From a virus (taxonomy: Duplodnaviria > Caudoviricetes): DNA of 64,000 bases. The first letter of the stretch is position 1. Every line of letters begins with the position of its first letter. Below are positions 3,101-18,771 of the stretch, piece by piece. The notes under the pieces are model-generated. The model did no database searches. It worked only from the letters and a program-made list of their open reading frames with translations, and was not told where the DNA came from. A program made the translations under genes and the position numbers. The stretch lies in the IMG/VR virus record IMGVR_UViG_2974655483_000001, positions 32,001 to 96,000 of that record, one strand, 5' to 3'.

Positions 3101-3125
3101 ACATAGGTAAACAAATGACAGGATC

Positions 3126-3329: not shown

Positions 3330-3368
3330 TACATATTAATGTAATTTATCATTGATCATTTCATTACA

Positions 3369-3642: not shown

Positions 3643-3646
3643 TTCC

Positions 3647-4652: not shown

Positions 4653-4665
4653 TCTATGCAATACT
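4608..4665 (+). promoter_or_regulatory. Early-promoter cassette copy 2 (degenerate, no TTG -35)
   Basis: GTGACA...TGCAC at 4608-4629; CCCCCCAAA in the -35 region; TGc-AATACT -10 at 4660-4665. Confidence 0.55.
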
Positions 4666-4669
4666 AATA

Positions 4670-4846: not shown

Positions 4847-4967
4847 TGAAACCTTCAATGTCCAATGGGATTCAAAGGACAAAGTACAAATTGAGGAAGA
4901 CGATTGGGTCTCTTCTATTCTTGGAACTGAAGAAGATGCAATCTACGATGTGTTAGCGGAACTATGA
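4836..4967 (+). CDS. Small acidic hypothetical protein (43 aa)
   Basis: MFSDETFNVQWDSKDKVQIEEDDWVSSILGTEEDAIYDVLAEL; ATGA overlap with the next gene. Confidence 0.6.
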   Translation: MFSDETFNVQWDSKDKVQIEEDDWVSSILGTEEDAIYDVLAEL

Positions 4968-5155
4968 TTGGACTACGAGTTAGGATTAGACCCAAGAGCA
5001 GAGATGCTATTGAAAAGTTTAGATATGACATGAAGCGTAACAATGTGATGTATGTCACTGATCGTAAACGCTTGTGGCATCTATTTAATCCTGACTCGGG
5101 TATTAACTTATGGGTACACCCCACAGACGATCCTAACTGGGAAATTATTCGATGA
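4964..5155 (+). CDS. Hypothetical protein
   Basis: 63-aa ORF coupled on both sides by ATGA overlaps. Confidence 0.7.
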   Translation: MIGLRVRIRPKSRDAIEKFRYDMKRNNVMYVTDRKRLWHLFNPDSGINLWVHPTDDPNWEIIR

Positions 5156-5310
5156 AAGACTATGATCGTTGGCGTATTCTCTGGAAGAAAGAGAAGAAAC
5201 CAGGATTTTATGCAACTCAAGAAGTTGTAGTTTATGGAATGCACAATGTTGAATATGTAATTGACAATGTTGTGCCAGAAAATGTAAACTGGGATGTTCT
5301 CCCAGCGTGA
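5152..5310 (+). CDS. Hypothetical protein (52 aa)
   Basis: MKDYDRWRILWKKEKKPGFYATQEVVVYGMHNVEYVIDNVVPENVNWDVLPA; stop TGA lies in the cassette GTGACA. Confidence 0.65.
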   Translation: MKDYDRWRILWKKEKKPGFYATQEVVVYGMHNVEYVIDNVVPENVNWDVLPA

Positions 5311-5380
5311 CAGTCGCTGAACTGGTCGGGCACCCTTGACGCGGTGCCTTTTTTGTGCCATACTATAAGAGTCAAAGGAA
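5307..5380 (+). promoter_or_regulatory. Early-promoter cassette copy 3 with terminator-like hairpin
   Basis: GTGACAGTCGCTGAACTGGTC; TTGACG 5336-5341, 17 bp, TGc-CATACT 5359-5364; conserved ATAAGAGTCAAAGGAA leader. Confidence 0.85.
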
Positions 5381-5384
5381 ACGC

Positions 5385-5564
5385 ATGATTTTTGATTTTG
5401 AAACTGAGTATCATTGGGGTGCTCTCATGGTCAAACTTGTTCCTATGTTTGCCATGGATGTTTACAAAGCATCCGATGATGAATTAGTATGGGTCTTTGA
5501 TGTGAACAATCCCAAGAATGGGTATCATGTCCCCGCTCGCAATCTCTCCACCTATTCTTATTAA
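5385..5564 (+). CDS. Hypothetical protein (59 aa)
   Basis: ATG 5385 after AAAGGAA in the cassette leader; the 5355 extension in the ORF track runs through the promoter. Confidence 0.7.
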   Translation: MIFDFETEYHWGALMVKLVPMFAMDVYKASDDELVWVFDVNNPKNGYHVPARNLSTYSY

Positions 5565-5566
5565 TT

Positions 5567-6385
5567 ATGCGTAAACCATTCCTTAAGTGGGCAGGTAACA
5601 AGTATAGAGTTCTAGAGCATTTACTGCCTCTGATTGGTACTCCAAAAACATATGTCGAACCTTTCGCTGGTAGTTGTGCAGCAGCATTAAATGTTGATGC
5701 CAAACAATATGTGATGAATGATATTAATGCTGATCTTATCAATCTTTACAAGTACCTGACTAATCCAAACGACGGCAGTTTTATTCAACACTGTGGCGAC
5801 TTCTTTCATCACCAGAAGAATGACAAGGAAGAATATATTACACTTCGTAAGTATTTCAACGACAGCACTGATACACTAGAACGTTCACGCCTGTTTGTAT
5901 ATCTCAATCGTCACTGTTTCAATGGTCTGACTCGATACAATTCGAGTGGTGGTTTTAATGTGCCATTTGGTAAGATGAAGAATCCAATGTTACCTAGCAC
6001 AGCAATGATGGACTTTCGTATGTATTTTCTCATGCGTCAGCATATCTTTGCTAACGTACACTTTGATGATGACCGTTTATATACAGGACTAGGATCTGGT
6101 GATGTAGTATACATGGACCCTCCCTATGTTCCTGCCTCTGATACTGCTAACTTTGCAAGTTATGCCAAGGAAGGGTTCGCATATGATGAGCAAGTTGCAC
6201 TGGTAAAGAGAGCAGAATCTCTTGCTAGTCAGGGTGCTAAAGTTATCGTTAGCAACCATGATACTGACGTTAGTAGAGAACTATACAAAAATGCAGAAAT
6301 CTATCCGTTGCAGGTGTCCCGTAGCATCTCTGCCAAGGGCAGCAGCAGAAAAAAAGCAAATGAACTTATTGCAGTCTATTCATGA
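5567..6385 (+). CDS. dam: DNA adenine methyltransferase, Dam/D12 class
   Basis: FLKWAGNK, YVEPFAGS (motif I), YLNRHCFNGLTRYNSSGGFNVPFG, YMDPPY (motif IV). Confidence 0.95.
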   Translation: MRKPFLKWAGNKYRVLEHLLPLIGTPKTYVEPFAGSCAAALNVDAKQYVMNDINADLINLYKYLTNPNDGSFIQHCGDFFHHQKNDKEEYITLRKYFNDSTDTLERSRLFVYLNRHCFNGLTRYNSSGGFNVPFGKMKNPMLPSTAMMDFRMYFLMRQHIFANVHFDDDRLYTGLGSGDVVYMDPPYVPASDTANFASYAKEGFAYDEQVALVKRAESLASQGAKVIVSNHDTDVSRELYKNAEIYPLQVSRSISAKGSSRKKANELIAVYS

Positions 6386-6639
6386 TTACTAATCTAAAAC
6401 GAAAGACCATCAAACAGCACTTAGTGATGTGTGCAACTATGGGAATCTGTAGTAATGTGCAAACACCGAAAGAATGGGCACAACTTATGGGTTATAAGGT
6501 CCATTCTGTTCGTCATGCTAACCTCGCTACTCTAAATGTGGCAGCAGCAGGTAAAGAATTGAATAGAGAAATGGGTTACGATTACATTTATGAGCATTTT
6601 CCTCTATGGTCGCATAATAAGAAGTATAGTCCCATGTGA
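6382..6639 (+). CDS. Hypothetical protein
   Basis: 85-aa ORF with ATGA overlap with dam; stop inside the next cassette. Confidence 0.7.
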   Translation: MITNLKRKTIKQHLVMCATMGICSNVQTPKEWAQLMGYKVHSVRHANLATLNVAAAGKELNREMGYDYIYEHFPLWSHNKKYSPM

Positions 6640-6710
6640 CAGTTGATTGAACTGTCCACTATCACTTGCAAAGCACCTCAAAAGGTGCAATACTATAAGA
6701 GTCAAAGGAA
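6636..6710 (+). promoter_or_regulatory. Early-promoter cassette copy 4
   Basis: GTGACAGTTGATTGAACTGTCCAC; TTGCAA 6666-6671, 17 bp, AATACT 6689-6694; ATAAGAGTCAAAGGAA. Confidence 0.85.
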
Positions 6711-6722
6711 CCGATCAACCCC

Positions 6723-7157
6723 ATGGCAACACACGCTCCCCGCCGCACTGACAAGACTGGCAAATGCTTTGAATATTTTTGTGAGCATCTCTTGTGCCTC
6801 TCTGGTTCTAATGTAGAGGAGCAAGAAAACATCGGTTTGCGTCCTACAGGTGGTGCTCACAATACAGACCTAATCGTTGATGAGGAGGTTATTATTTCTC
6901 TGAAATATCAGGACGTTGCTGGTACTGCTGAGGAGAAGATTCCATACGAGCAGATGTGTTTACAGCACGCATGTGAGACCTATGGATATAAAAAAGCAGT
7001 CGTAGTCCTTGCTGGTCCTGGTTGGTCACACGATGATTCTTATCGTGAAAATGTGTTTGGGCAGTGGATGAATACTCCTGACGTTTCTATCATCAACTTC
7101 GATGAGTTTCTTGATGAGTTTCAACTATGGGAAACCTTCCTGTCTGAGGTCATGTGA
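6723..7157 (+). CDS. PD-(D/E)xK superfamily nuclease (restriction-endonuclease-like)
   Basis: GKCFE helix Glu, TDLIV, ISLKYQDVAGTAEEKIPY, VVVLAGPGW. Confidence 0.7.
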   Translation: MATHAPRRTDKTGKCFEYFCEHLLCLSGSNVEEQENIGLRPTGGAHNTDLIVDEEVIISLKYQDVAGTAEEKIPYEQMCLQHACETYGYKKAVVVLAGPGWSHDDSYRENVFGQWMNTPDVSIINFDEFLDEFQLWETFLSEVM

Positions 7158-7225
7158 CAGTTGGTTAAACTGTCCACCAAACCCCCCAAAGCACCCTGGA
7201 AGGTGCCATACTATAAAAGTCAAAA
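7154..7225 (+). promoter_or_regulatory. Early-promoter cassette copy 5 (CCCCCCAAA instead of TTG -35)
   Basis: GTGACAGTTGGTTAAACTGTCCAC; TGc-CATACT 7207-7212; ATAAAAGTCAAA. Confidence 0.75.
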
Positions 7226-7234
7226 CAAACATCC

Positions 7235-8146
7235 ATGACAAACCTCACCAAACTGGTAAAAGATATCGAGACGGGCAATCGTCCTTCCAATGATATTGAC
7301 ATCACCCAATTCTTCAAGAAAACAATTAGTGGTGAATATGTTCCTGATATGAGTACACGTATTCAGGTGCGTAATCGAGATCGTGATGTAGATTTTGTTG
7401 AGCGAACTGTTAATAAGATTAACAAAACTGGTGACAGAAGTAAACTTTCTACCCTGACTACTGTATTCTTTCCTAAGACAAATGCAGTAAAACTTCTCAA
7501 CGGAAACCATACTGCTGAGATCGAGTTGCAGTTGGGACTGCGAAAGGCAGTTGCTAACTCTATCAATTTTGATACAGAGTTGGGTGGTAAAATGTCACTG
7601 GCACGGCGTCTTGGTAATCTACTCAACCGTGAGGAAGTAGAACGCAATTCTACTTCTGCTGATGACGTAAGAGGAGAACTCTATGCAATCATGGACGAAC
7701 GTATTGCTGAAGGAAAAGATGCAAAACCTTCAGAAAGTGAAATTCAAGAACTGATTGAGTTGTATCCTTTTGTCAGTCGCTTAACAATCGGGCAATGGAT
7801 TTCTTATCACGCCCAGGGTGGAAGCAGACGTGCTCCTTTGAAATCTTACTCGGGAGAAGAACTTAAGCAACAGAAAGAATTTTACACTAAGCAGAGAAAG
7901 TATCGTGATTATGTAATCCTGGCACCTCGTACACTTGGCGCATGGGAGAGTACAGGAGTTGCACAATCATTCATTCAATGTAAGAATGAAAATAAGACTA
8001 AGGTTCTTGTTCCATTCTATTGTGCATCTGTTGCAGAGTCTGAAAAACTTGAGAAAGGCGAAGATGTAAGAATTGAAACATTTTATAGGGAACTTGGTGC
8101 ATACTATGGTCTCACTTTTGAAGTTGATTTTCTGAGTTGTGAGTGA
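7235..8146 (+). CDS. Hypothetical protein, possibly with a ParB/Srx-like N-terminal domain
   Basis: 303 aa; IQVR...LLNGNHT resembles the ParB/Srx hhDGxHR motif. ORF is secure, function is weak. Confidence 0.6.
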   Translation: MTNLTKLVKDIETGNRPSNDIDITQFFKKTISGEYVPDMSTRIQVRNRDRDVDFVERTVNKINKTGDRSKLSTLTTVFFPKTNAVKLLNGNHTAEIELQLGLRKAVANSINFDTELGGKMSLARRLGNLLNREEVERNSTSADDVRGELYAIMDERIAEGKDAKPSESEIQELIELYPFVSRLTIGQWISYHAQGGSRRAPLKSYSGEELKQQKEFYTKQRKYRDYVILAPRTLGAWESTGVAQSFIQCKNENKTKVLVPFYCASVAESEKLEKGEDVRIETFYRELGAYYGLTFEVDFLSCE

Positions 8147-8149
8147 CGT

Positions 8150-8223
8150 GTGACAATCGCTGAACTGGTCTGGACCCCTTGACGGGGGTCTATTTTTATG
8201 CCATACTATAAGAGTCAAAGGAA
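8150..8223 (+). promoter_or_regulatory. Early-promoter cassette copy 6 with terminator-like hairpin
   Basis: 64/74 identical to copy 3; TTGACG 8179-8184, 17 bp, CATACT 8202-8207. Confidence 0.85.
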
Positions 8224-8232
8224 CGCCATTCA

Positions 8233-9471
8233 ATGCAACTCCGTCCCCACCAGCAACGCGCATTCGATGCCATGCAGGCAAACGACTGTGGGCAGGTGAT
8301 CATCCCTACGGGTGGTGGCAAGACTTACATCATGATCGCAGATGCTCTGCATCGTGCTGCACAGGGTCAAACGATTGTTGTTGTTGCTCCACGCATCTTG
8401 CTCGCTAATCAACTCTGTGAGGAGTTTATGGAGCACATCAGTGGCACTTGGACGCATGTCTGTCATGCACATAGCGGAGAGACTCACTACTTCAGCAGCA
8501 CAAAACCTGAGAAGATTGCACTCTTCAATGATACTGCACGGGCAGCGGGTGAGAGTTGCATTATATTCACCACCTATCATTCTCTGCACCGCGTTGTAGA
8601 TAGTGGCATCAATATTGACACTATCTATTTCGATGAAGCACACAATGGTTGTGGTCGTCACTTCCACAAAGCAGTATTTGCCACGGCACAGTATGCCAAG
8701 CGTCGTTACTATTTCACTGCTACCCCTAAGAATGGTCGTGGTGTGAGTCTTTCGCGTGGCATGAATAACACCTCTGTTTATGGTCGCACTCTGTGCAATG
8801 TGCCTGCTGCTGAGTTGATCGCTGCTGGTGCAATCGTGCCCCCTAAAGTTGTTGCTTTTGAGACGAGTCGTACTCGTAACAAGTACAACGCACACGAGGT
8901 TGATGGTGACAACCTGAAGGATATGTTCGAGCAACTCGATGTATTCCAGAACCCTAAAGTCTTGGTGGCAGCACCATCTAGCAAGGTTCTGGGTAACATG
9001 CTCGGACAGACTGACATCCTTGAGTATTTCTATCGCAAGGGATATGACGTGATGCACATCACCTCTAAGTTTGGTGCTATCATCAACGACAAGAAAGTAG
9101 GACGCGAGGAGTTCTTCAACACGCTGCAATCGTGGGGTGCTGATGACTCTAAGAAGTTTGTTATCTTTCACTATTCCATTCTGTCTGAGGGTATCAATGT
9201 GCCAGGTCTGACGCATACAATCTTGCTGCGTAATCTGCCCATCGTAGAGATGGCACAGACAATCGGTCGTGTTATCCGTGTCCACCAAGATGACCGCGCT
9301 GCTGTTGCTGAGGGTCGCATTCCTGCTGGTGCGTTTCATCTTTACAAGAAGTCTGAAGGTATTGTTACCATGCCAACAGGTTACAAGATGGGTAACGCTA
9401 TCGCTCAAAGATTGCAGAATGTTGTTAACGCTATCTTCATCGAAGGTATTCCTCCCGTCGCATTCTGCTAA
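8233..9471 (+). CDS. Superfamily 2 DEAH-type helicase (type III restriction Res-like)
   Basis: Q motif LRPHQ, PTGGGKT, FDEAH, TATP, LSEGINVP, QTIGRVIR. Confidence 0.92.
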   Translation: MQLRPHQQRAFDAMQANDCGQVIIPTGGGKTYIMIADALHRAAQGQTIVVVAPRILLANQLCEEFMEHISGTWTHVCHAHSGETHYFSSTKPEKIALFNDTARAAGESCIIFTTYHSLHRVVDSGINIDTIYFDEAHNGCGRHFHKAVFATAQYAKRRYYFTATPKNGRGVSLSRGMNNTSVYGRTLCNVPAAELIAAGAIVPPKVVAFETSRTRNKYNAHEVDGDNLKDMFEQLDVFQNPKVLVAAPSSKVLGNMLGQTDILEYFYRKGYDVMHITSKFGAIINDKKVGREEFFNTLQSWGADDSKKFVIFHYSILSEGINVPGLTHTILLRNLPIVEMAQTIGRVIRVHQDDRAAVAEGRIPAGAFHLYKKSEGIVTMPTGYKMGNAIAQRLQNVVNAIFIEGIPPVAFC

Positions 9472-9698
9472 TGTCTGATTATGTTTTTGACCGAGATGAT
9501 TGGGAAATGGTTTTTGAAGCAATATGTTTCTATGACATGCACAAGGAGGAAGATTCATTTAATGATAAACAAGACTTAGCATGGAGAACACTTTACGATG
9601 AATGTCAGTATCAACTATATGGAGAACCTGATATCGTTTTTGCTGCCGCGCTGGCAAAAAGGGCACAATCAAAACTTAAACCTTCGCAGTGGGCATAA
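9471..9698 (+). CDS. Hypothetical acidic protein
   Basis: 75 aa; TAATG coupling on both sides. Confidence 0.7.
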   Translation: MSDYVFDRDDWEMVFEAICFYDMHKEEDSFNDKQDLAWRTLYDECQYQLYGEPDIVFAAALAKRAQSKLKPSQWA

Positions 9699-9886
9699 TG
9701 ACACCAACAACTGACTCCACTTGGTTTACACACACATCCGACAAATTGTATGATCGGCACTATTACACAATCGACAAAAAACGATTCGATGACTATGACC
9801 AACTCAGAGCATATTGGTTCCAAATTCCTATCACTAATCAAACTGTGATTGTTCATGACTATAAAAAGAAGAAGGGGTTTAGTTAG
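9698..9886 (+). CDS. Hypothetical cyanophage protein
   Basis: MTPTTDSTWFTHTSDKLYDRHYY...KKKGFS. Confidence 0.7.
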   Translation: MTPTTDSTWFTHTSDKLYDRHYYTIDKKRFDDYDQLRAYWFQIPITNQTVIVHDYKKKKGFS

Positions 9887-10042
9887 TATCACTTAGTCTT
9901 TTTTCCATAACGAGAGCGGGAGGCATGACCAAACACACCTGACGGACAGAATTATGCAAAAAACAGGTCTTTGCTCTAGTGGTGGCAAGGGTTCTCAAGG
10001 CATGACAGCGACAGGATGACAGCATACCACCAACCAACCCAA

Positions 10043-10114
10043 ACCAGTTGGCGAACTGGTCAAAACCCCTTGCCAAATGCCTCAAAATCTGCAATACTAT
10101 AAGAGTCAAAGGAA
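10043..10114 (+). promoter_or_regulatory. Early-promoter cassette copy 7
   Basis: ACCAGTTGGCGAACTGGT; TTGCCA 10070-10075, 17 bp, AATACT 10093-10098; ATAAGAGTCAAAGGAA. Confidence 0.85.
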
Positions 10115-10121
10115 CAGCACC

Positions 10122-10295
10122 ATGCGAACCGTCACCAAAGTCCAAGCACTAGAGCAATTCCGTTACAACTGGATGGCAACCAAATCAACAGATAATGTCG
10201 CAAAGCGTGAGGCATGGGGTATCTTCACTGATGAACTTTGCCGTGAGGGTTATATCACCATGAAAAAGTACGAGTCCTGGAGCAACCCTTTTTGA
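10122..10295 (+). CDS. Small hypothetical early protein
   Basis: MRTVTKVQALEQF...EGYITMKKYESWSNPF; ATG after the cassette leader. Confidence 0.75.
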   Translation: MRTVTKVQALEQFRYNWMATKSTDNVAKREAWGIFTDELCREGYITMKKYESWSNPF

Positions 10296-10510
10296 TGAAG
10301 ATTGACACGGTTGGTAGAGTCATAGGATCATTTCTTGTGGTCACTGCATATTTCATCATCCTACATGTTAACATATCATTAGGGGTGATTATGCAGTTTG
10401 TTGGTGATGCTATCTCCGTGCCATTCTTCATCCGAACTAAATCTTGGGATGTTGTAATCATGCTCGCGTTCCTGTTAATCATCTCATCTACTAAATTGCT
10501 ACCGAACTAA
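10295..10510 (+). CDS. Small membrane protein (about 3 transmembrane helices)
   Basis: Three hydrophobic segments in 71 aa; coupled start. Confidence 0.75.
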   Translation: MKIDTVGRVIGSFLVVTAYFIILHVNISLGVIMQFVGDAISVPFFIRTKSWDVVIMLAFLLIISSTKLLPN

Positions 10511-10554
10511 TGTCTTGGGGTCTCATTCCATGGTCACGTCTTAAACACAGAAAA

Positions 10555-10728
10555 ATGACTTATCTTCAACTTCTAGAACAACTTCAGTGCTGCTCAAAAG
10601 AAACTCTACAGCAAACTGTGACGCTGTATAGTATCAAAAATGACGAGTTTACTCCCGCTTATATGACAGATTACACTGACAGTGAGGAACAAGTTCTCGA
10701 CCCTAATCATTTTGTAATTACTTTCTGA
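10555..10728 (+). CDS. Hypothetical protein (start may be 10510)
   Basis: MTYLQLLEQLQCCSKETLQQTVT...LDPNHFVITF. Confidence 0.65.
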   Translation: MTYLQLLEQLQCCSKETLQQTVTLYSIKNDEFTPAYMTDYTDSEEQVLDPNHFVITF

Positions 10729-10964
10729 TGACCGAATTTACTCCTCCTGATAATGCTGAACTCATTGATGATGTATTTTATGTTTGGAAGTCTCGGTATG
10801 GACTATACTCAACAGCAACAAAAGAAGGTCGCCAGATGATGACTGGTGCCACTAAAGATGGTGTTACTCTCATGACAAGATGGCATCTTAAGTGTGAACA
10901 AGATGGCACACTTGAACAATACACAAGAGTTGTAGGATCCTCCGTTGTGAGTGGTAAACTATGA
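10728..10964 (+). CDS. Hypothetical cyanophage protein
   Basis: 78 aa, coupled on both sides. Confidence 0.75.
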   Translation: MTEFTPPDNAELIDDVFYVWKSRYGLYSTATKEGRQMMTGATKDGVTLMTRWHLKCEQDGTLEQYTRVVGSSVVSGKL

Positions 10965-11248
10965 CCGAACTTCCTGTCGATTTTGTTCATGATGCTCCAA
11001 AGGGTTACTCTTATGAGGTTGAAGATTTCAAGCGAAATGTCGTTTCTATTTGGTTACTTCATCATCAAATCTTTTCTTATACTAGTGATCCTGTTCGTAC
11101 AATCTGGGGTTTCTACAACACAAAGAAACGGGAGTATTTTGCACCCATCAACTCAAAGAAGTGTGGAAGCAAAGTAATCATAACTGACACGACTCCGTAT
11201 ACATCCATGAAGGTCAATCGTAGGGGGTTAGAGATACTTTGGATGTGA
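10961..11248 (+). CDS. Hypothetical cyanophage protein
   Basis: 95 aa; ATGA overlap. Confidence 0.75.
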   Translation: MTELPVDFVHDAPKGYSYEVEDFKRNVVSIWLLHHQIFSYTSDPVRTIWGFYNTKKREYFAPINSKKCGSKVIITDTTPYTSMKVNRRGLEILWM

Positions 11249-11251
11249 TGG

Positions 11252-11330
11252 GTGTGCCAGTCCCCTAAAGTGGCACACAGGCGCTTGTAAAGGGGTCTCA
11301 AAGGTGCAATACTATAAGAGTCAAAGGAAA
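11252..11330 (+). promoter_or_regulatory. Early-promoter cassette copy 8
   Basis: GTGTGCCA-N11-TGGCACAC; TTGTAA 11285-11290, 17 bp, AATACT 11308-11313; ATAAGAGTCAAAGGAA. Confidence 0.85.
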
Positions 11331-11339
11331 CGAACTCAA

Positions 11340-11546
11340 ATGCTTTTCAAAGGTCCAAACGGTTCAACCTGCTCCACTCTCAGCGGTCCCCAAATCATCG
11401 CACTATCTAACACCGATGAATTCATTGAAAACACCAAAATCGTTGCTGAAAAAACTGGGTCAATGGATCTCTGGCGTGAAATGTTCGGTGATGATGATGG
11501 CATCGGACAGGACTCTGCCTTTATGGATGACAACTTCGGAGGGTAA
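11340..11546 (+). CDS. Hypothetical protein
   Basis: ATG 11340 after the cassette leader. Confidence 0.7.
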   Translation: MLFKGPNGSTCSTLSGPQIIALSNTDEFIENTKIVAEKTGSMDLWREMFGDDDGIGQDSAFMDDNFGG

Positions 11547-11587
11547 CTTCGACAACTAAGTAAAACACACTCACTTCACTAACTAAC

Positions 11588-11824
11588 ATGTTTGACACCA
11601 CTCTTGACCTCTTCGCATTCAACGAGACTGACGATCGTGATGACATGATTGATACTATGGCAGAGACTTATTTCAAAGCAATGACAACATTGGCAGCAGA
11701 TAACCGCAACTTTGATGCAATCGCCTGCTATGAGGAGTGGGTTGTTGATGGTGTAGACCCTCAAGATGGTGGTGTAGAGATATTCTTCGCACCTGATCTT
11801 ACACGCGAAAGAGAAGAGAATTAA
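11588..11824 (+). CDS. Very acidic hypothetical protein
   Basis: 78-aa ORF, Asp/Glu-rich. Confidence 0.7.
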   Translation: MFDTTLDLFAFNETDDRDDMIDTMAETYFKAMTTLAADNRNFDAIACYEEWVVDGVDPQDGGVEIFFAPDLTREREEN

Positions 11825-11831
11825 AGTCCGC

Positions 11832-11903
11832 GTGTGCCAGTTCCCAAAGAGCACACCATCGCTTGATTTCCGCACCGATTGGTGCAATACTATAAGAGTC
11901 AAA
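11832..11903 (+). promoter_or_regulatory. Early-promoter cassette copy 9
   Basis: GTGTGCCAGTT...GAGCACAC; TTGATT 11863-11868, 17 bp, AATACT 11886-11891; ATAAGAGTCAAA. Confidence 0.8.
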
Positions 11904-11915
11904 CAAACACACCTC

Positions 11916-12188
11916 ATGCAACTCTCAAACTCCGTCTGTATCGTTGATTTCTTCCCTGAGGCATTCATTGCTGAGTCAGATGATATCAAAGGCATGAAAG
12001 TTACAGTTCGTCGTTTTAACAAGCGTGTGACATTCATTGATAACGGTGCTAAGTCTTATAGCACTGTGACAGCACTCACAGCACGTAATGAGTGGATGGA
12101 GCGTATTGCTAGCGGTGCAACAGTTACTGACTACCACACCGACAAAATGCCTCGCTCTGAGTATGCTCCCATGGCATGTGTGGGGTGA
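11916..12188 (+). CDS. Hypothetical cyanophage early protein
   Basis: MQLSNSVCIVDFFPEAFIAE...; ATG after the cassette. Confidence 0.75.
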   Translation: MQLSNSVCIVDFFPEAFIAESDDIKGMKVTVRRFNKRVTFIDNGAKSYSTVTALTARNEWMERIASGATVTDYHTDKMPRSEYAPMACVG

Positions 12189-12223
12189 TTCCCCTCACTC
12201 ACTGCAAACCCTTATCTAACATC

Positions 12224-12391
12224 ATGCTCAAAACACAACTACTCAAAGTCGTCGGTGAAACTGCAAACAGCGTTGATACTAAAATGACACGATTGGAAAA
12301 GTTTGAAGTATTCTGTCGCGTGTGTGATGGGTTACTTGAAGATGGTCGAATCAGTTCTGCTAAACATTACGCATGGACCAACGTATTCTAA
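12224..12391 (+). CDS. Small hypothetical protein, probable paralogue of 10122..10295
   Basis: C-terminus CDGLLEDGRISSAKHYAWTNVF. Confidence 0.7.
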   Translation: MLKTQLLKVVGETANSVDTKMTRLEKFEVFCRVCDGLLEDGRISSAKHYAWTNVF

Positions 12392-12433
12392 CTCCTAACT
12401 AACTCCAAATCTCATCCAAATTAGGACTAAATC

Positions 12434-12724
12434 ATGAATTACACTCTCAAGCAACTTCAAGACCGTGTTAATAGTATGATCAAAGAACAGGGAGAAGATG
12501 CAGAATGTGCAGCATGGATTTATACCAAGCATGATTGTCATCTAAAGGATGAAGATGGTGAGACTGATTATGACAATAATGTAGAAGATCCTGAAGTTCT
12601 TGCACGCATCTTCTATCAAGTTGGTGATTCTGATTACATCTATCAGTGCATTCAAGATGAAGTGGATGAAGCAACAGAGGAGCAACTTGTGCAGTATCAG
12701 CAAGAGTTAGTGGAGGTAAAATGA
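12434..12724 (+). CDS. Acidic hypothetical protein
   Basis: 96 aa, AGGA ribosome-binding site. Confidence 0.75.
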   Translation: MNYTLKQLQDRVNSMIKEQGEDAECAAWIYTKHDCHLKDEDGETDYDNNVEDPEVLARIFYQVGDSDYIYQCIQDEVDEATEEQLVQYQQELVEVK

Positions 12725-12855
12725 GAATTACGCAATACTTACTCAGTGGCATCTTTGTCGTTGTTGGTATCACTTGTTATCTGATATTCTTAGCAGAACG
12801 TGATACTAAGATGATGAACTACTACGATTCAACTACTATTCAGGGGGCACGATGA
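12721..12855 (+). CDS. Small single-pass membrane protein (44 aa)
   Basis: MRITQYLLSGIFVVVGITCYLIFLAERDTKMMNYYDSTTIQGAR; GGAGGT ribosome-binding site. Confidence 0.65.
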   Translation: MRITQYLLSGIFVVVGITCYLIFLAERDTKMMNYYDSTTIQGAR

Positions 12856-13055
12856 ACTACACTAAAGAACAACTGATTGAGGCACTCTGTCGTGAATATG
12901 ATTACCTCTGTCATGATGATTATGATCCTGAGGTTGATGATACTCCAGAAGAATATCGTCTCAGACTTGAATGCTACTCTCTTGAAGAGTTAGTAGAAGA
13001 TACATGCACGGGCGAAGGTTACACACTTGACGAATTCATGGAGAACTGGAACTAA
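12852..13055 (+). CDS. Very acidic hypothetical protein
   Basis: 67 aa, coupled on both sides. Confidence 0.75.
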   Translation: MNYTKEQLIEALCREYDYLCHDDYDPEVDDTPEEYRLRLECYSLEELVEDTCTGEGYTLDEFMENWN

Positions 13056-13231
13056 TGGACAAGATTGATACACAGGGCATGAGTCTTCCTGGTGATGGTA
13101 ATACTAACTCACAGCGTGAGTATCCTCCAATGCCAGTAAGAAAGCGCACTATCTTCACAGCAGAAGAGAGAATAGAACTCAAAGAGATAATTAACGAAGC
13201 ACTCGATGAGCGTAACGACGCCAGACGATAA
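13055..13231 (+). CDS. Hypothetical protein (58 aa)
   Basis: MDKIDTQGMSLPGDG...IFTAEERIELKEIINEALDERNDARR; TAATG coupling. Confidence 0.65.
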   Translation: MDKIDTQGMSLPGDGNTNSQREYPPMPVRKRTIFTAEERIELKEIINEALDERNDARR

Positions 13232-13245
13232 CCGCAAGATCCCTT

Positions 13246-13304
13246 GTGCCAGTTGGTCAAAGTGTCCACTATCGCTTGCAATTCGCCCGATTCTCTGCCA
13301 TACT
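13246..13304 (+). promoter_or_regulatory. Early-promoter cassette copy 10
   Basis: GTGCCAGTTGGTCAAAGTGTCCAC; TTGCAA 13276-13281, 17 bp, CATACT 13299-13304. Confidence 0.8.
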
Positions 13305-13331
13305 AACAGTATGGAAATCAAGGAAACCAAC

Positions 13332-13535
13332 ATGACTGCCAACAAAATGCTTCTCAACAATCCTTCTTTCGTCAACGCCCTTCGTGGTCTGCAATCTTTC
13401 GTGATGGAAACAGGTGCCGACGTTGATATGGCGTTTGATTGGGTATGCGACCAGGCAGAAATCAACTCCTTTGCAGGTGATTTAGATGCCTTCTCTTGCT
13501 TCTATGATGTATACTGCGATGCCGCAAATGATTGA
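13332..13535 (+). CDS. Hypothetical protein
   Basis: ATG 13332 after AAGGAA. Confidence 0.7.
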   Translation: MTANKMLLNNPSFVNALRGLQSFVMETGADVDMAFDWVCDQAEINSFAGDLDAFSCFYDVYCDAAND

Positions 13536-13587
13536 TATCTTTCACAACTCCTTACAACAACTTACAGATCTTTCTATCTACAAACCT

Positions 13588-13767
13588 ATGACTACTGGCA
13601 ACCCTTACACTGATACCCTGCTCGAAATGGGTTATGACAGACAAGACATCGAAGTTGCAGGCGCTATGTTTCAAAAGCATACGTTCCCATGTGTTATCCA
13701 TGGTCGTCAATTTGACACTGAAGAGCAATACTTTGCTGAACTACATGAGTATATGAATGGCATGTAA
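13588..13767 (+). CDS. Hypothetical protein
   Basis: MTTGNPYTDTLLEMGYDRQDIE... Confidence 0.65.
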   Translation: MTTGNPYTDTLLEMGYDRQDIEVAGAMFQKHTFPCVIHGRQFDTEEQYFAELHEYMNGM

Positions 13768-13822
13768 TTGAAGCGTTTATCTGATACTAATCGCTTCACA
13801 TTCTTTACTAAATCTTTTCCTC

Positions 13823-13954
13823 ATGCGTATTGCTCTTGCTGCTATCATCGTCCTTTGTGGTGCTAACTTACTCATTGAGTTGCTAGATTCATCCATGGTT
13901 GATGTTATTAAAGAAAGGAACGAAACGATCCAACGCCAAATCGACGCCATGTGA
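13823..13954 (+). CDS. Small membrane-anchored protein (43 aa)
   Basis: MRIALAAIIVLCGANLLIELLDSSMVDVIKERNETIQRQIDAM; stop inside the next cassette. Confidence 0.65.
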   Translation: MRIALAAIIVLCGANLLIELLDSSMVDVIKERNETIQRQIDAM

Positions 13955-14018
13955 CAATCAGGGAACTGTACCCAATATCGGGTTTTACCGTTGCGCCACC
14001 CTCCAAAACTGCTACAAT
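13951..14018 (+). promoter_or_regulatory. Early-promoter cassette copy 11 (divergent)
   Basis: GTGACAATCAGGGAACTGTAC; TTGCGC 13991-13996, 16 bp, TGc-TACAAT 14013-14018. Confidence 0.65.
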
Positions 14019-14072
14019 ACAGACAAGCGGGAAACGAAACGAAACCGCCTCTCAACCTTTTCTCTTCTCATC

Positions 14073-14420
14073 ATGCGTAAGATTGAATCCCAAATGTGTG
14101 CCGCTGTCCAGTCCTCCTCCAACTGGACTAGCAGCAATACGGCAGTTTATTTTGATGAGACGACTAGCACCTCTGTCGTTCGCCTGCATGGCAATAAGAT
14201 TGCTGAGATCACAGACGACACCATGACCATTTTCGATGGCGGTTGGCAGTCAACTACAACCAAATCCAGATTAAATGCACTATGTGATGAATTCTGTGTT
14301 GCTGGTGAAGGTGTATTCCAAAAGAATTACAAGTGGTTTGTAAGAAAGTTCACTGCACAACTAGGCACTGAAAAAGTATTCACTACAGAAGAATTCACCA
14401 ACGGTTACATCTTCGCATGA
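14073..14420 (+). CDS. Conserved-type phage hypothetical protein
   Basis: MRKIESQMCAAV...LHGNKIAEI...FDGGWQSTTTKSRLNAL...FQKNYKWF. Confidence 0.8.
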   Translation: MRKIESQMCAAVQSSSNWTSSNTAVYFDETTSTSVVRLHGNKIAEITDDTMTIFDGGWQSTTTKSRLNALCDEFCVAGEGVFQKNYKWFVRKFTAQLGTEKVFTTEEFTNGYIFA

Positions 14421-14494
14421 TTAAAACTAAGAAAGAGTGGGCAAAGACCTACGCTAACTTCTATTCAATCGTTCTAATCCTCATCCTCTTATGA
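14417..14494 (+). CDS. 25-aa hydrophobic peptide
   Basis: MIKTKKEWAKTYANFYSIVLILILL; ATGA overlaps at both ends. Confidence 0.45.
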   Translation: MIKTKKEWAKTYANFYSIVLILILL

Positions 14495-14709
14495 TCATTA
14501 AAGTTTCTCGCTCTACACGTAAGAAGAACACAATCGAGACCTTTGTATCATTCCCATCTAATACTTCCTTTCAAACTGCATATCGCCTCCTAGGTAATCG
14601 TTCTAATGGTATTAACATTAAACGTGCCACTATCTCTCAAGTAACACAAAATCAAGTCACCAAACATATCAAATACTATGATTTCGCAACGCATCAAGTA
14701 GTACGCTAA
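14491..14709 (+). CDS. Basic hypothetical protein
   Basis: 72-aa ORF. Confidence 0.6.
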   Translation: MIIKVSRSTRKKNTIETFVSFPSNTSFQTAYRLLGNRSNGINIKRATISQVTQNQVTKHIKYYDFATHQVVR

Positions 14710-14729
14710 CTATCTCTACAATCTATTAC

Positions 14730-14990
14730 TTTTCCACAGATGAAAGACTTTACTAAGGGACAACAAGTTACTTACAATCAGTTCCAAGGTAAAGTAAACT
14801 TTATAGGTGATCACTATGTAACCCTTACTATAAGGGAATGGGATAAAACCCCGCAGGAACAAAGAAACGCTAAACATAACACTCACCAAGTCAACTTATG
14901 TGTATACAGAGAACATTGGAAAGATATACATTTAGTCCCTCCACAGGTTAATAATACTTTTTCCACAGATAATGCGGAAATTGTGGAAAA
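14730..14990. other. Cluster of cyanobacterial-type DnaA boxes (candidate origin element)
   Basis: Perfect TTTTCCACA at 14730-14738 (+), 14959-14967 (+) and 14982-14990 (-). Confidence 0.55.
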
Positions 14991-14997
14991 CTATTAA
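14740..14997 (+). CDS. Hypothetical protein
   Basis: 85-aa ORF; its 3' end overlaps the DnaA-box-like cluster. Confidence 0.65.
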   Translation: MKDFTKGQQVTYNQFQGKVNFIGDHYVTLTIREWDKTPQEQRNAKHNTHQVNLCVYREHWKDIHLVPPQVNNTFSTDNAEIVENY

Positions 14998-15046
14998 TAA
15001 ATCTATTTGTGTTACTTATATGCCTTAAAGGTGCTCTGGAGATGTA

Positions 15047-15075
15047 GTCTTAGCACGCTCCCTAACAGTTGTCAA
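15047..15075 (-). promoter_or_regulatory. Leftward sigma70-like promoter
   Basis: Minus strand TTGACA (15075-15070), 17 bp, TGc-TAAGAC(T); -10 is imperfect. Confidence 0.45.
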
Positions 15076-15149
15076 CCCCTCTGAAATACTCGGAGAATAC
15101 TCTCATCACCATTGCTAATCATTCCCCTCTGAGGGTCATACAGAGGCAC

Positions 15150-15178
15150 TTGACAAACTATCAAATAGATGGTACAAT
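15150..15178 (+). promoter_or_regulatory. Near-consensus sigma70 promoter
   Basis: TTGACA-17 bp-TACAAT with extended -10 TG. Confidence 0.85.
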
Positions 15179-15222
15179 AACCTTGTAGAGGTTCAGAAAC
15201 ACTCCTTGTATCTTTGAGACTT

Positions 15223-15426
15223 ATGCATTACCTTATCTACGACAACACAGAGACACTTAGAGCAACATTCGTAAGTGTCTATGATCTCGAGAAGTTCATC
15301 GATGGTATTAGAAACTCTCGGGGAGATAGTTACCCAAATACTCCGAGAATGTCTACCTTTGATTACATCAAGACTATCGGATGGTACTGGGAGGTTGTTG
15401 ACAAATCAGCAGAGGTTAGTGTATAA
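15223..15426 (+). CDS. Hypothetical protein
   Basis: MHYLIYDNTETLRATFVSVYDLEKFIDG...; downstream of a strong promoter. Confidence 0.65.
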   Translation: MHYLIYDNTETLRATFVSVYDLEKFIDGIRNSRGDSYPNTPRMSTFDYIKTIGWYWEVVDKSAEVSV

Positions 15427-15427
15427 T
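15398..15427 (+). promoter_or_regulatory. Consensus sigma70 promoter
   Basis: TTGACA-18 bp-TATAAT. Confidence 0.75.
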
Positions 15428-15612
15428 AGCAGAGGTAATCGGAGGTCCTTTGAGTAACACTTAGCGGCAGTACTAAATGTTACTTTGGCAGTTTATTGGG
15501 CCCCCTTAAATATAAAATAAGCCACTACCCTAACCTACAAAGGTTCCCAGACGCCTTAGATATTATTCAATAATACTTTAGTGTCAATCTAAAAAAATTT
15601 CTGAGGTAAAAA

Positions 15613-15831
15613 ATGGATGCTAAGACCCGCGTAGAGAGACAAGACACTCGTGTATGGGCACTAGAGCAACTAATAAGGTTAGAGGCATTCCTAGACCCTC
15701 GTATGTACGAGTGTGCAGACTATTACACATCATCTTATGCCTCTCAGGTTGTAGAAGATCTATATACACTATGGGTTGAGTGGAAAGAAGATAATCCCAC
15801 AGATAATCCCCAAGTAATAAATCGTATGTAA
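15613..15831 (+). CDS. Hypothetical cyanophage protein
   Basis: 72 aa, GAGGT ribosome-binding site. Confidence 0.75.
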   Translation: MDAKTRVERQDTRVWALEQLIRLEAFLDPRMYECADYYTSSYASQVVEDLYTLWVEWKEDNPTDNPQVINRM

Positions 15832-15838: not shown

Positions 15839-16009
15839 ATGTCCCAGAGATTCACAACAATTTTAGAAGAGGATGATTTAGGAGATTTAATATTAGTAAT
15901 ACCTTATGAGGTATGTGAGGAGATGGGGTGGGATGTTGGTACAGAATTAGAGTATGAATTAGAAGACCAATCATTTATTTTAAAAAAGCATGACGAATCC
16001 GAAAATTGA
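15839..16009 (+). CDS. AbrB/MazE/SpoVT-like small DNA-binding protein (56 aa, missed by ORF track)
   Basis: MSQRFTTILEEDDLGDLILVIPYEVCEEMGWDVGTELEYELEDQSFILKKHDESEN; fits the swapped-hairpin pattern hxIPxxhxxxhGhxxGxxhxh. Confidence 0.7.
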   Translation: MSQRFTTILEEDDLGDLILVIPYEVCEEMGWDVGTELEYELEDQSFILKKHDESEN

Positions 16010-16229
16010 TCGCTGGGCAGATAATGCCGAAGCACACGAGATTATTAATGAATGTTTAATATCATTAGCAGAGCGATTAAAGAAACTAGAAGAGTATGTG
16101 GTACAGATTCCAACACCCGAAAAGATTTTGTATAAACCGAAGGGTGAGGAAGAGTATCTAAATTTAAAAGAAAATTATGATTTAATCTATAAAAGTATAG
16201 AGGAATTAAGGAATGGGATGCAAGACTAA
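15990..16229 (+). CDS. Hypothetical helical protein
   Basis: 79-aa ORF overlapping both neighbours. Confidence 0.7.
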   Translation: MTNPKIDRWADNAEAHEIINECLISLAERLKKLEEYVVQIPTPEKILYKPKGEEEYLNLKENYDLIYKSIEELRNGMQD

Positions 16230-18771
16230 TTATTCTTCAGGGGAAAGCAGTCCATGTTTTAGAACAAATCATTGTTCGGTGAATGTACCATTACCTGTAG
16301 ATCAAGCAACCACTGTAGAGTTTCGTGAGTATCCACTTTCAGAGATTCGTAATAGTAGTATCAACTATCAGATTGATAAGAGAGATAGTGTTGCGATTAT
16401 GCACCCAAGTATTGCATTACCAGCAGTATCTGGTGGCGGTTTACCTCCTGCTAGTGGTGCAACCTGTGGAAAAGTGTTTAGAGCAGCAACTTGTCTTGAT
16501 GTAAGTCAATGGGTCTATGATTATGTACCTAATGAGTTATCGTTTGACTTAGGATTTAGTGATCGATATTTTTCGTATCTATATGACACATCAGATAATG
16601 CTGGTCATGTTGGTATTGCTTGTTATTACTTAGAGACTAGAAATAGTACAAATACCACTGCTAGTACTCCTGCAAGTGGTACAGAGGGGCAACCTGATTA
16701 TGTTGCTGGCACTCCTGGTGTATCAACTACAACTTCATCGACTGTTTGTAAACCTTGTACAGCATTTACATGTGCTACAAGTAAGACTACTATATCCTAT
16801 TCTGGTACAGAAAATGTAACGGGCGACCCCGACGCGCCGCATCCCACATTATTTGCAATTGGTACAGATTCAGATAAAGTTGTAGTATCATATGATTCGT
16901 TAAGTACCACAATACCAAATGGTGTTACTGATATGGAGTTTTCATATGATGGTGTAACTTATACTGATGTATGGGATCAGACAACACAAGCAGGTCTTGT
17001 ATACGATTCACCTCAAAATCCATTTGTAACTGGTCAAAATCAATTAACTGACTTTGAAATTTATGACTTAGATGTTGGTCTTGCGACAGGATTCCGAATT
17101 AAAGTTGCTATTACATCAATTGCAGATGACACTGCAGAACCTGGACCCACCTTTTCTGGTGTTAGATGGCAGATTACAGAACTCATGGACCCTGGAGCAG
17201 ATTATGCAGTAGGTACAGTAATTCCTTTGACGTATGCATATACCAAACCAGACAATACAGTTGTTAATTTAACAATGAATTTAAAGATTACTGGAGTTGG
17301 TCCTACTACATCAGTATTATCTCAGGCAGGATTTAATATTCTAAGAGTAGGTGATACTCTTAATGGACATACAGTAACTCGTGCTTTTCATACTGATATT
17401 GATAATTTTCCATATCATGTCATTTATTTGAATGGTAGTGGTAGTAATTTTGTTAAAGATACGCAATATACATCTGATAGGAATCATGTAGTTACTGCAC
17501 ACGCAGGATTTGGCATTATAGACAGAGGAATACTAGTTGGAAAGTATGAATTTTCTGATAAATCTATACAATATAGCACTGTAGATGTTGATAAAAATGC
17601 ACCAGATGTGTTTAATACTCTTAAACAACCAGATGTTACTCTATCAGTATCAAATGGACGAGTAACAGGTGCCACAATCGTCTCTGGAGGTGCTGGATGG
17701 AAAGATGGTGCTACTCTTTCGGTAAGTTCTCCGCAAGATGCTTTTAAATTTGAGCTAGATGATGACGGTCGTGTGGAATCCGTAGTAACAAACCCCAAAA
17801 ACGAGTCTAATATTGCTAAATTAGAAGGAACTTTTACTAATGGAGTGCTAACTGCGGTAACTGTAGTCGATGGCGGTAAAGGATATAACACAGTATTGAC
17901 AAATGTGGACGAAGATGGTAATGAATATACCGAAGAAAATCTACCTACCGTGTTTGTGAGTGATATTGTAAATTATAAGACAAGTACTGCTCCAAATGCA
18001 GCATATGAACCCGAAAAAGCGGACGATTATATGGATACATTGGGTAAATTTCCTCAAGATATCTCTCCAGAACTAGAAAATCAAATTTTTAGCGGATTTG
18101 ACCAGGATCCTAAGTATATTGATAATATTCCTGCATCAAATATCAATCAAAAACGCGATCCTGAGCGATTAAAAATCGATAAACAACCGCAGAGACTATA
18201 TTCTGCGGCATCTGTCGATGAATATAGGGAAACTTATGAGTTAAAAGGTGATTTAACAGAGGATATTCTCGCTCCTGACTTTGATAGTAGTATTAAAGAT
18301 GCTGTCTTAAAGGGTTATAATGATGAAGTTAATGCAAGAAAGGAACATTCTGATGCATTGGTGCAAGAAGTAATCCCTGAGTCTACAATTGGTAATGAAG
18401 CATTGATTGAAACAGTTCAAGGTACATTTAACGATATTCCAGTTGCATCAACGTATACTAAATATTTTATGAAACAATATCGTCCAGATCCAACTTCGGA
18501 GGTTACACTGAAAGTTACTCTTGGTTGTGAAGTTGCTCAAGCAGGATGTGGACATGTTCCATGCTCTCCTGTACCATCTGTAGGGAGCACTACAAATAAT
18601 CCTGATGGTTCTACGGATGTGGTCACATTTACTCCACAAGTAGGACCTTTGGGGGGTGGTTGTAGAAACTGGAGTGCAACTGGAAACTTACCTATTTTGC
18701 ATGATATGACTTCATCTGGCAATACTTTTCGTGAAGCATGTGATGCTTTTGGAAATCCTTACGCTACTTAA
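16213..18771 (+). CDS. Putative virion/baseplate-associated protein with Cys-rich termini
   Basis: 852 aa; contains the GGxGY/W beta-module seen in other baseplate proteins; lies before PAAR and gp25. Confidence 0.7.
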   Translation: MGCKTNYSSGESSPCFRTNHCSVNVPLPVDQATTVEFREYPLSEIRNSSINYQIDKRDSVAIMHPSIALPAVSGGGLPPASGATCGKVFRAATCLDVSQWVYDYVPNELSFDLGFSDRYFSYLYDTSDNAGHVGIACYYLETRNSTNTTASTPASGTEGQPDYVAGTPGVSTTTSSTVCKPCTAFTCATSKTTISYSGTENVTGDPDAPHPTLFAIGTDSDKVVVSYDSLSTTIPNGVTDMEFSYDGVTYTDVWDQTTQAGLVYDSPQNPFVTGQNQLTDFEIYDLDVGLATGFRIKVAITSIADDTAEPGPTFSGVRWQITELMDPGADYAVGTVIPLTYAYTKPDNTVVNLTMNLKITGVGPTTSVLSQAGFNILRVGDTLNGHTVTRAFHTDIDNFPYHVIYLNGSGSNFVKDTQYTSDRNHVVTAHAGFGIIDRGILVGKYEFSDKSIQYSTVDVDKNAPDVFNTLKQPDVTLSVSNGRVTGATIVSGGAGWKDGATLSVSSPQDAFKFELDDDGRVESVVTNPKNESNIAKLEGTFTNGVLTAVTVVDGGKGYNTVLTNVDEDGNEYTEENLPTVFVSDIVNYKTSTAPNAAYEPEKADDYMDTLGKFPQDISPELENQIFSGFDQDPKYIDNIPASNINQKRDPERLKIDKQPQRLYSAASVDEYRETYELKGDLTEDILAPDFDSSIKDAVLKGYNDEVNARKEHSDALVQEVIPESTIGNEALIETVQGTFNDIPVASTYTKYFMKQYRPDPTSEVTLKVTLGCEVAQAGCGHVPCSPVPSVGSTTNNPDGSTDVVTFTPQVGPLGGGCRNWSATGNLPILHDMTSSGNTFREACDAFGNPYAT

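Follow-up and report, generated by a model that had tools for sequence, protein, structure and literature searches.

The window analysed here (64,000 nucleotides, bases 32001–96000 of the 174,670-bp virus record IMGVR_UViG_2974655483_000001, a T4-like cyanomyovirus of the S-RIM12/Syn33 kind) carries a cluster of three perfect copies of the 9-mer TTTTCCACA, the cyanobacterial DnaA box. The cluster is a selected DNA element of the phage, as its sequence, position and helical phasing are conserved independently of coding. Box 1 adjoins the start codon of a small open reading frame (ORF), boxes 2 and 3 form a convergent pair at the end of the same ORF, and an AT-rich tract and a promoter region lie further downstream (Table 1). 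The three boxes may be a conserved cis-acting docking site for host DnaA, modulating a transcript-primed initiation site at the adjoining cassette; we hold this reading tentatively, with a probability of about 0.35. Both DnaA binding and any replication role are inferred here rather than observed.

Conservation of the box cluster

The perfect boxes of the window start at 14730 (plus strand), 14959 (plus), 14982 (minus) and 16465 (minus). A preliminary description of this DNA had placed the first three correctly and overlooked the fourth; it had also named box density as a check of its proposal. The cluster is not due to chance: the whole genome of 174,670 bp contains six copies of TTTTCCACA, whereas approximately 1.4 are expected under a third-order Markov model, and three of the six sites fall within 261 bp (P = 1.4e-4 in a simulation).

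Among annotated phages, Cyanophage S-RIM12 and Syn33 (Kyanoviridae, Brizovirus) are the nearest, with 96–98% identity over the box region, and the box stretch is recognisable in S-CAM8 (84%) and ACG-2014a (73%). Five aligned phages, representing three genera, have an invariant GTTTTCCACAGATG (box 1 together with the start codon), and the DNA 5' of it is unrelated in two of the five. In 19 relatives, the identity to the window sequence is 0.81 for box 1 versus 0.43 for the 40 nt upstream. The 33-nt element containing the convergent pair is invariant in five phages of three genera, with the exception of one spacer base in S-CAM8, and the surrounding ORF diverges. Moreover, the pair is retained in L123, L154 and ACG-2014a, although the overlapping ORF stops before it. 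The spacer between the arms, which formed no part of any search pattern, has an identity of 0.94 to the window sequence in 19 relatives, compared to 0.77 for codon positions 1 and 2 of the ORF and 0.62 for position 3.

The boxes of phage arrays are spaced in helical phase. Boxes of the same orientation are situated 11–12, 19–22, 31–35, 42–43 or 52–54 bp apart, and convergent ones 13, 23–25 or 34–36 bp apart. The arrays of different lineages hold from two to eight boxes, and some are formed by 22-nt iteron-like repeats. In two cyanomyovirus contigs (L075:370-700 and L090:4720-5060), a gene-free stretch of about 330 bp contains six to eight perfect boxes, some of them within iteron-like tandem repeats of 22 nt; in both, the box array is separated from the convergent pair by a strong TTGACA-17-TA(C/G)AAT promoter that is antisense to the genes.

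The fourth perfect box is part of the baseplate wedge gene, where it reads TGT GGA AAA (Cys-Gly-Lys) in frame, and it may owe its sequence to coding by coincidence. A box in the same frame is present in Syn9 gp94, and close relatives repeat it at about −3.05 kb from gp25.

Relation to DnaA

The motif TTTTCCACA is the DnaA box of most cyanobacteria, whose oriC adjoins dnaN, and it is bound in vitro by domain IV of the Cyanothece DnaA (PMC4674748). The Ori-Finder and DoriC papers likewise give it as the cyanobacterial DnaA box, in agreement with the identification made in the preliminary description. The match of the phage boxes to the host consensus rests on this literature for cyanobacteria (PMC4674748).

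For bacteria, 8-kb loci from one genome per prokaryotic species were scanned, and DnaA was called by Walker-A or domain-IV signatures. A protein with a DnaA signature was found within the locus in 51 of the 120 listed bacterial loci holding a convergent pair with a 14- or 15-nt spacer, the chance level being about 0.2%. The dnaA-linked pair is mostly situated just upstream of dnaA. The arrangement TTTTCCACA-N14/15-TGTGGAAAA, whose spacer often contains a third box, directly precedes dnaA in many Acidobacteriota, Clostridia and other metagenome-assembled genomes (L207–L326). As a layout of the dnaA promoter or of oriC, the convergent pair upstream of dnaA seems to be both conserved and widespread.

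The flank preferences of 222 unique phage boxes agree with those of 136 dnaA-linked bacterial boxes. A at position −2 is seen in 63% of the phage and 40% of the bacterial boxes, G at −1 in 64% (A in 3%) and 47% (A in 9%), a purine at +9 in 95% and 71%, and T at +11 in 59% of both. The arrayed DnaA sites of E. coli oriC follow an 11-bp register.

The phage genome has neither the DnaA AAA+ domain (PF00308) nor the DnaA DNA-binding domain (PF08299), and a phage-encoded DnaA is thus ruled out. Since the phage encodes no DnaA, recruitment or titration of the host protein is the simplest reading, and the agreement of core, flanks and spacing suggests that the boxes are probably bound by DnaA.

Alternatively, the motif could be read by a phage-encoded or another host DNA-binding protein, its identity to the DnaA box being coincidence or mimicry. 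Conservation past the 9-mer (AG-TTTTCCACA-R-n-T) would suit a dedicated dimeric regulator on the convergent pair, and an AbrB/MazE-like protein and several small ORFs of no known function are encoded nearby. However, dnaA-linked boxes of unrelated bacterial phyla share the flank preferences, and the tandem 11–12-bp arrays fit the site spacing of DnaA oligomers. Besides, the neighbouring ORFs, including the AbrB-like one and phrog_522, occur in box-less phages too, and the motif is limited to one locus, with no regulon. We consider such a protein improbable.

The phrog_522 ORF, which starts immediately after box 1, was also considered as a clue to the role of the boxes and set aside, as it encodes a generic barrel with no significant match in PDB (best E = 0.04) and occurs in box-less phages. 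An SH3-like beta-barrel is predicted for residues 1–65, with the predicted local distance difference test (pLDDT) score above 90 for residues ~9–65. Its weak, non-significant likeness in PDB is to ribosomal KOW-type proteins and to cyanobacterial NdhS/Ssl0352. An ORF that continues through the pair encodes the tail FST..VEN, for which disorder is predicted, and the members of the family have variable tails.

Distribution among cyanophages

The pattern TTTTCCACA-N6..30-TGTGGAAAA was applied to IMG/VR and yielded at least 120 loci. Among the matches listed, the spacer lengths peak at 14 (44 pairs) and 15 (19 pairs), together 63 of 133 pairs, and cyanomyovirus contigs account for 63 of the 120 loci. 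In every listed cyanomyovirus contig that also holds gp25, the pair is situated 2.2–9.1 kb upstream of this gene; an SF2 helicase gene, where present, lies 4–9 kb upstream of the pair. For a control palindrome (reversed, of the same composition), none of the 119 loci among the matches listed has these marker genes. We relied on the identity of the loci, as the raw match counts (at least 120 for the motif and at least 119 for the control) are both lower bounds and are unusable as an enrichment test.

Two side observations come from these scans. The control palindrome ACACCTTTT-N10-AAAAGGTGT is recurrent itself, with a spacer of exactly 10 in 56 of the 119 listed matches, in viral contigs unrelated to the locus; it may represent a hairpin family. 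A GC-rich (0.60) IMG/VR contig unlike this phage has seven perfect TTTTCCACA boxes inside 110 bp (L069:6064-6171), and this array may belong to another virus or to a misbinned bacterial origin.

The spacer sequences of the IMG/VR pairs are very diverse, a length of 14–15 nt being favoured. This bears on one more explanation, that the mRNA of ORF 14740 ends in an RNA hairpin (a terminator or a stability element) formed by the inverted pair, or that the cluster has no function at all. The 9-bp arms could pair over a 14-nt loop, and the pair does lie at the ORF end. However, the arm sequence is conserved with no covariation, the loop sequence is free yet its length is fixed at 14–15 nt, and the same 9-mer also occurs in tandem direct repeats and in single distal boxes. 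Further, no T-run follows the pair, and no terminator-like match was found on the plus strand. This explanation is therefore very improbable.

In a sample of 80 contigs picked solely by gp25 similarity (about 900 kb surveyed), 31 perfect boxes were observed in the 15.5 kb that fall at −5.0 to −4.5 kb from gp25. Another 14 boxes fall at −3.5 to −3.0 kb, most of them being the wedge-gene box, and all remaining bins combined contain 16.

We further counted boxes over the whole records of 20 reference cyanomyoviruses. The syntenic cluster is present in twelve (Syn33, S-CAM8, ACG-2014a, Syn9, S-PM2, S-SM1, P-SSM7, P-TIM68, Syn1, Syn19, S-ShM2 and S-RIM8) and absent from eight (P-RSM4, P-SSM2, P-SSM4, P-HM1, P-HM2, P-RSM3, S-SSM7 and S-RSM4). 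Boxes outside the cluster occur in these genomes at the same level as a reversed-pattern control. The synteny in related phages, which the preliminary description had proposed to examine, is seen upstream of gp25 both in the twelve genomes with the cluster and in the 63 IMG/VR loci. By raw counts, which ignore phylogeny, 11 of 13 phages with Synechococcus as the host of isolation (this genome counted) have the cluster, versus two of eight isolated on Prochlorococcus. No cluster of TT[A/T]TCCACA is present in T4, RB49, KVP40 or Aeh1.

The S-PM2d deletion (5,799-15,339; PMC4503421) was considered as evidence of dispensability and rejected, as the S-PM2 box cluster, at 19.2 kb, lies outside it. 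In the S-PM2 record (NC_006820, 19177-19333; L332:1378-1534), RefSeq annotates tRNA-Asn and tRNA-Leu exactly over the box cluster, where ARAGORN finds none; these annotations look misplaced.

Layout of the region

All genes of the region are on the plus strand. On the upstream side there are small early-type ORFs, forming an island with repeated promoter cassettes; on the downstream side, the large baseplate wedge gene is accompanied by genes of a PAAR protein, gp25 and gp6. Downstream of the pair, the order is the AT-rich tract, a conserved block, the promoter P2, the 67-aa ORF, the promoter P3, about 185 nt free of ORFs, and the genes leading toward the baseplate module.

Table 1. Boxes, promoters, ORFs and conserved blocks around the cluster (window coordinates).
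Feature	Position	Strand	Remarks
DnaA box 1 (TTTTCCACA)	14730..14738	+	adjoins ATG of ORF 14740; 229 bp upstream of box 2
Small ORF, 85 aa, phrog_522	14740..14997	+	boxes 2 and 3 encode its C-terminal tail
DnaA box 2	14959..14967	+	left arm of the convergent pair
Degenerate box in spacer	14973..14981	-	plus strand TGCGGAAAT, minus strand ATTTCCGCA; 2 mismatches; abuts box 3
DnaA box 3	14982..14990	-	right arm; 14-nt spacer, 23 bp start to start
AT-rich tract	14991..15025	.	gp25 side of the pair
Conserved non-coding block GGTGCTCT..GTAGTCTTAGCACGC..TTGTCAA	15026..15098	+	weak promoter-like TTGTCA-18-GAGAAT inside; block also written GGTGCTCT..CTTAGCACGC..TTGTCAA
Sigma-70-type promoter P2, TTGACA-17-TACAAT, TG-extended	15150..15178	+	11/12 matches; precedes ORF 15223; invariant in 5 phages
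Small ORF, 67 aa, phrog_718	15223..15426	+	
Sigma-70-type promoter P3, TTGACA-18-TATAAT	15398..15427	+	12/12 matches; followed by ~185 nt without ORFs
Highly conserved non-coding block	15498..15550	+	late-promoter-like TATAAAATA and invariant 24-mer; occurs with or without boxes
Fourth perfect box	16465..16473	-	inside baseplate wedge gene (16213-18771)

The degenerate box between the arms and the AT-rich stretch behind them had both been noticed in the preliminary description. At positions 14991-15020 the A+T content is 83%, and about 0.1% of the 30-nt windows of the genome are this AT-rich. In 60 unique relatives, the 30 nt that follow the pair have an A+T content of 0.72 versus a background of 0.62, with no rise upstream. 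In S-PM2 the boxes occupy an intergenic gap and are followed by the same conserved block and then by an ORF-free AT-rich tandem-repeat region of about 200 nt.

The promoter P3 is not conserved in ACG-2014a. The A+T content of the 179 nt after it is 64%, reaching 81% only over the final 57 nt, and the strongest AT tract is upstream of the promoters. RNA explanations for the region were rejected: it contains no tRNA and no Rfam match even at E <= 1, and the stretch of about 185 nt after P3 folds like shuffled sequence (z = 0.00), with a covariation term of −0.11.

The block at 15498-15550 has the form GGGCCCCCTTAAATATAAAATAAG..TA(A/C)CCTAACCTACAAAGGTTCCC. All 12 aligned relatives have the same 24-mer, and matches to the block occur in 67 cyanomyovirus loci regardless of boxes, among them P-RSM4, which is box-less, and Syn9. 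The block shows no RNA-structure signal and may represent a late-type promoter with the 5' leader of the baseplate operon.

Two further observations concern promoters. A promoter-like TTGACA-16-TAATAT at 15560-15587 on the minus strand faces P3 and the boxes, and is kept only in the closest relatives. The early island (window 3040-14018) contains at least 11 copies of a repeated early-promoter cassette, composed of a GTGTGACAGT..AACTGTCCAC palindrome, a TTG −35 element, a TGCCATACT-type −10 element and the shared leader AAGAGTCAAAGGAA. These cassettes resemble the promoter-early-stem-loop cassettes of T4-like phages.

Candidate function of the boxes

The docking reading may be described as follows. 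The distal box and the convergent pair, with the degenerate box between its arms, would form the element to which host DnaA docks. Early in infection, host DnaA would bind these high-affinity boxes cooperatively on one face of the helix, and the bound complex would modulate the opening or firing of the adjoining cassette. The latter, with a promoter and a putative AT-rich unwinding element, is the best candidate for a T4-style transcript-primed start of replication. Initiation of phage replication would thereby be coupled to the state of the host initiator. An origin role as such is plausible, if far from assured. It is rather doubtful that, more generally, many Kyanoviridae use host DnaA to license or time the firing of a phage origin at the early/late boundary.

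Several observations weigh against this reading. The first concerns the GC skew. A GC-skew switch across the region had been suggested by two sample lines, in which the counts are correct (17 C and 5 G at 14461-14520, 3 C and 22 G at 15901-15960). However, neither the genome-scale skew nor that at four-fold degenerate sites changes at the box site, and what is seen is a local dip, with a maximum at window position 9663, a minimum at 15270 and a depth of 130 units, spanning the C-rich small-ORF island. The cumulative skew of the whole genome climbs almost steadily from 0 to 5543, and its global minimum is at genome position 4254, not near 15-15.6 kb of the window as had been expected. Every 10-kb bin has a negative skew at four-fold degenerate sites (−0.05 to −0.34), with no sign change at 47 kb. 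The total skew is positive, its source being codon positions 1-2; since the four-fold-site skew is negative throughout, the positive overall value is a coding effect and not a replication signal. With no switch in either measure, we discarded GC skew as origin evidence. At that, replication of the T4 type, driven by recombination, would not be expected to leave a skew change.

The second group of observations concerns strand opening. In the basal unwinding system of bacteria, three or more DnaA-trios must lie no further than 16 bp from a box of fixed orientation (PMC8287927, PMC6669920). We looked for boxes with at most two mismatches, in the correct orientation, at 0–16 bp from at least three trios, the orientation rule being our own reading of the E. 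coli layout of the DNA unwinding element (DUE) and R1 and of the 3'-GAT-5' convention. No perfect box has a qualifying trio run within 16 bp; the sole match is a minus-strand box with two mismatches, a spacer of 15 and the minimum of three trios. Further, both perfect boxes of the pair face inward, and the AT tract is situated behind box 3, on the wrong side for the unwinding module. As the boxes face inward, the tract lies behind box 3 and qualifying trios are lacking, melting driven by DnaA in the bacterial manner is not supported, and the basal unwinding system was rejected.

Thirdly, eight of the 20 reference cyanomyoviruses do without the cluster, six of these eight having been isolated on Prochlorococcus. 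P-RSM4, which has no perfect boxes, keeps the AT-rich TAAATAAAT, the conserved block, the promoters and a single box with one mismatch. By this comparison, the conserved control region consists of the AT tract and promoters, and the boxes are an optional addition to it. Since eight cyanomyoviruses lack the boxes, and P-RSM4 does so while retaining the remainder of the region, they cannot serve as the indispensable core of an origin. Finally, bacterial pairs of this geometry are mostly located at the dnaA promoter, a position equally compatible with an operator and with an origin. Thus, of the preliminary proposal that the phage recruits or titrates host DnaA at a bidirectional origin, the part concerning DnaA is supported by the conserved boxes of the DnaA type and the lack of a phage DnaA, whereas the origin part is weakened by the skew, the missing trio module and the dispensability of the boxes.

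The last two points lead to a transcriptional interpretation, under which the boxes are a DnaA-dependent operator or roadblock at the early/late boundary that represses, activates or terminates early transcription and plays no role in replication. Host DnaA would be bound at box 1, over the beginning of ORF 14740, and at the convergent pair, in the 3' terminal part of the same ORF and 80–160 bp upstream of the promoters P1/P2. The identical convergent pair with a 14- or 15-nt spacer occurs directly upstream of dnaA in many bacteria, in the classic autoregulatory position. Box 1 adjoins the ATG and has a TACAAT hexamer 6 nt upstream, the pair is succeeded by strong promoters, and the presence of boxes as an option in an otherwise conserved promoter region is what a regulatory input would look like; the absence of the DnaA-trio module points in the same direction. 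On the other hand, the arrays of five to eight helically phased boxes in some lineages exceed the needs of an operator, the pair overlaps no −35 or −10 hexamer of P2 or P3, and there is no clear reason for a lytic phage to place a few tiny ORFs under DnaA control. An operator is unlikely, though it retains a real chance.

The boxes could also act merely as a decoy without cis function, similar to datA: the multiplying phage genome would soak up host DnaA, stop host initiation and free resources. This would be consistent with boxes that are perfect and of the high-affinity type, vary in number from two to eight between lineages, are dispensable in many of these, and lack an unwinding module. 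However, a decoy gives no reason for the same syntenic spot beside the same AT-rich/promoter cassette in distant genera. Moreover, this genome holds three or four boxes only, and T4-like phages usually shut down the host otherwise. We regard titration as the sole function to be quite unlikely.

Significance

To our knowledge, the replication origins of T4-like cyanophages are unmapped. These phages are among the most abundant viruses of the ocean. Our literature search found no publication linking cyanophages with DnaA boxes, and a syntenic array of host-type boxes in T4-like phages is not described there. The conserved array at a single locus provides a precise place to look for the start of cyanophage replication. 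Use of DnaA would link phage replication, or the control of early genes, to the host initiator, which in cyanobacteria is connected with light and growth state; this could help to explain light-dependent replication of cyanophages. If host DnaA does license or time a phage origin, this would be the first origin dependent on host DnaA in a T4-type phage, and its replication would be tied to the light- and cell-cycle-controlled state of cyanobacterial DnaA. The uneven spread of the cluster between Synechococcus and Prochlorococcus phages could bear on host range.

Comparison with known systems

The phage 9-mer is identical to the cyanobacterial consensus, and the element shares with bacterial oriC and dnaA-promoter clusters (PMC8287927, PMC6669920, PMC4674748) the convergent pair with a 14- or 15-nt spacer, the flank preferences, the helical phasing and the adjoining AT-rich tract. 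The distal box, at about 229 bp, is at a distance permitted by looping, as in incC of B. subtilis. Unlike the bacterial clusters, the element resides on a lytic T4-like phage, comprises three or four boxes only, and has neither dnaA nor dnaN nearby and no phage initiator gene. The phage element also departs from the rule of the bacterial unwinding system: of its perfect boxes, the one closest to the AT tract has the opposite orientation, and none is succeeded by a run of trios.

DnaA boxes are known on plasmids and some temperate phages. They are carried by titration loci of the datA type and by plasmid and phage replicons such as P1 oriR, F and pSC101, and in these three replicons they are accessory to another initiation system. 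Similar to datA and plasmid boxes, the phage boxes form a high-affinity cluster outside the host origin, on a multicopy replicon. Unlike P1 oriR, F and pSC101, no gene of a Rep-type initiator is recognised beside the phage boxes, and the iteron-like 22-nt repeats are seen in some relatives only.

The third comparison is with T4 itself. Its origins oriF (uvsY) and oriG (gene 34) consist of a promoter and a downstream AT-rich unwinding element and are primed by an R-loop; they use MotA-dependent middle promoters and no host initiator, and the origin review never mentions DnaA (PMC3016281). This agrees with what the preliminary description had stated of T4. Unlike the present phage, T4, RB49, KVP40 and Aeh1 have no cluster of DnaA boxes, and unlike in T4, the promoters P2 and P3, which would be active before late transcription, are of the sigma-70 type and not of the MotA type. 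A positional analogy with the T4 order uvsW-oriF(uvsY)-gene 25 was considered and dropped: the SF2 helicase encoded upstream (window 8233-9468) has only a weak PDB match, to RAD25/XPB, and does not match T4 UvsW. Loss of the boxes in some phages would be explained, since T4 has several dispensable origins. The phage belongs to the same type as T4, with a T4-like replisome that in relatives includes a gp59 helicase loader. As at oriF and oriG, strong promoters are followed by non-coding or AT-rich DNA, and the site is located beside baseplate genes, near gp25. In its outline, the phage cassette would loosely fit a T4 R-loop origin.

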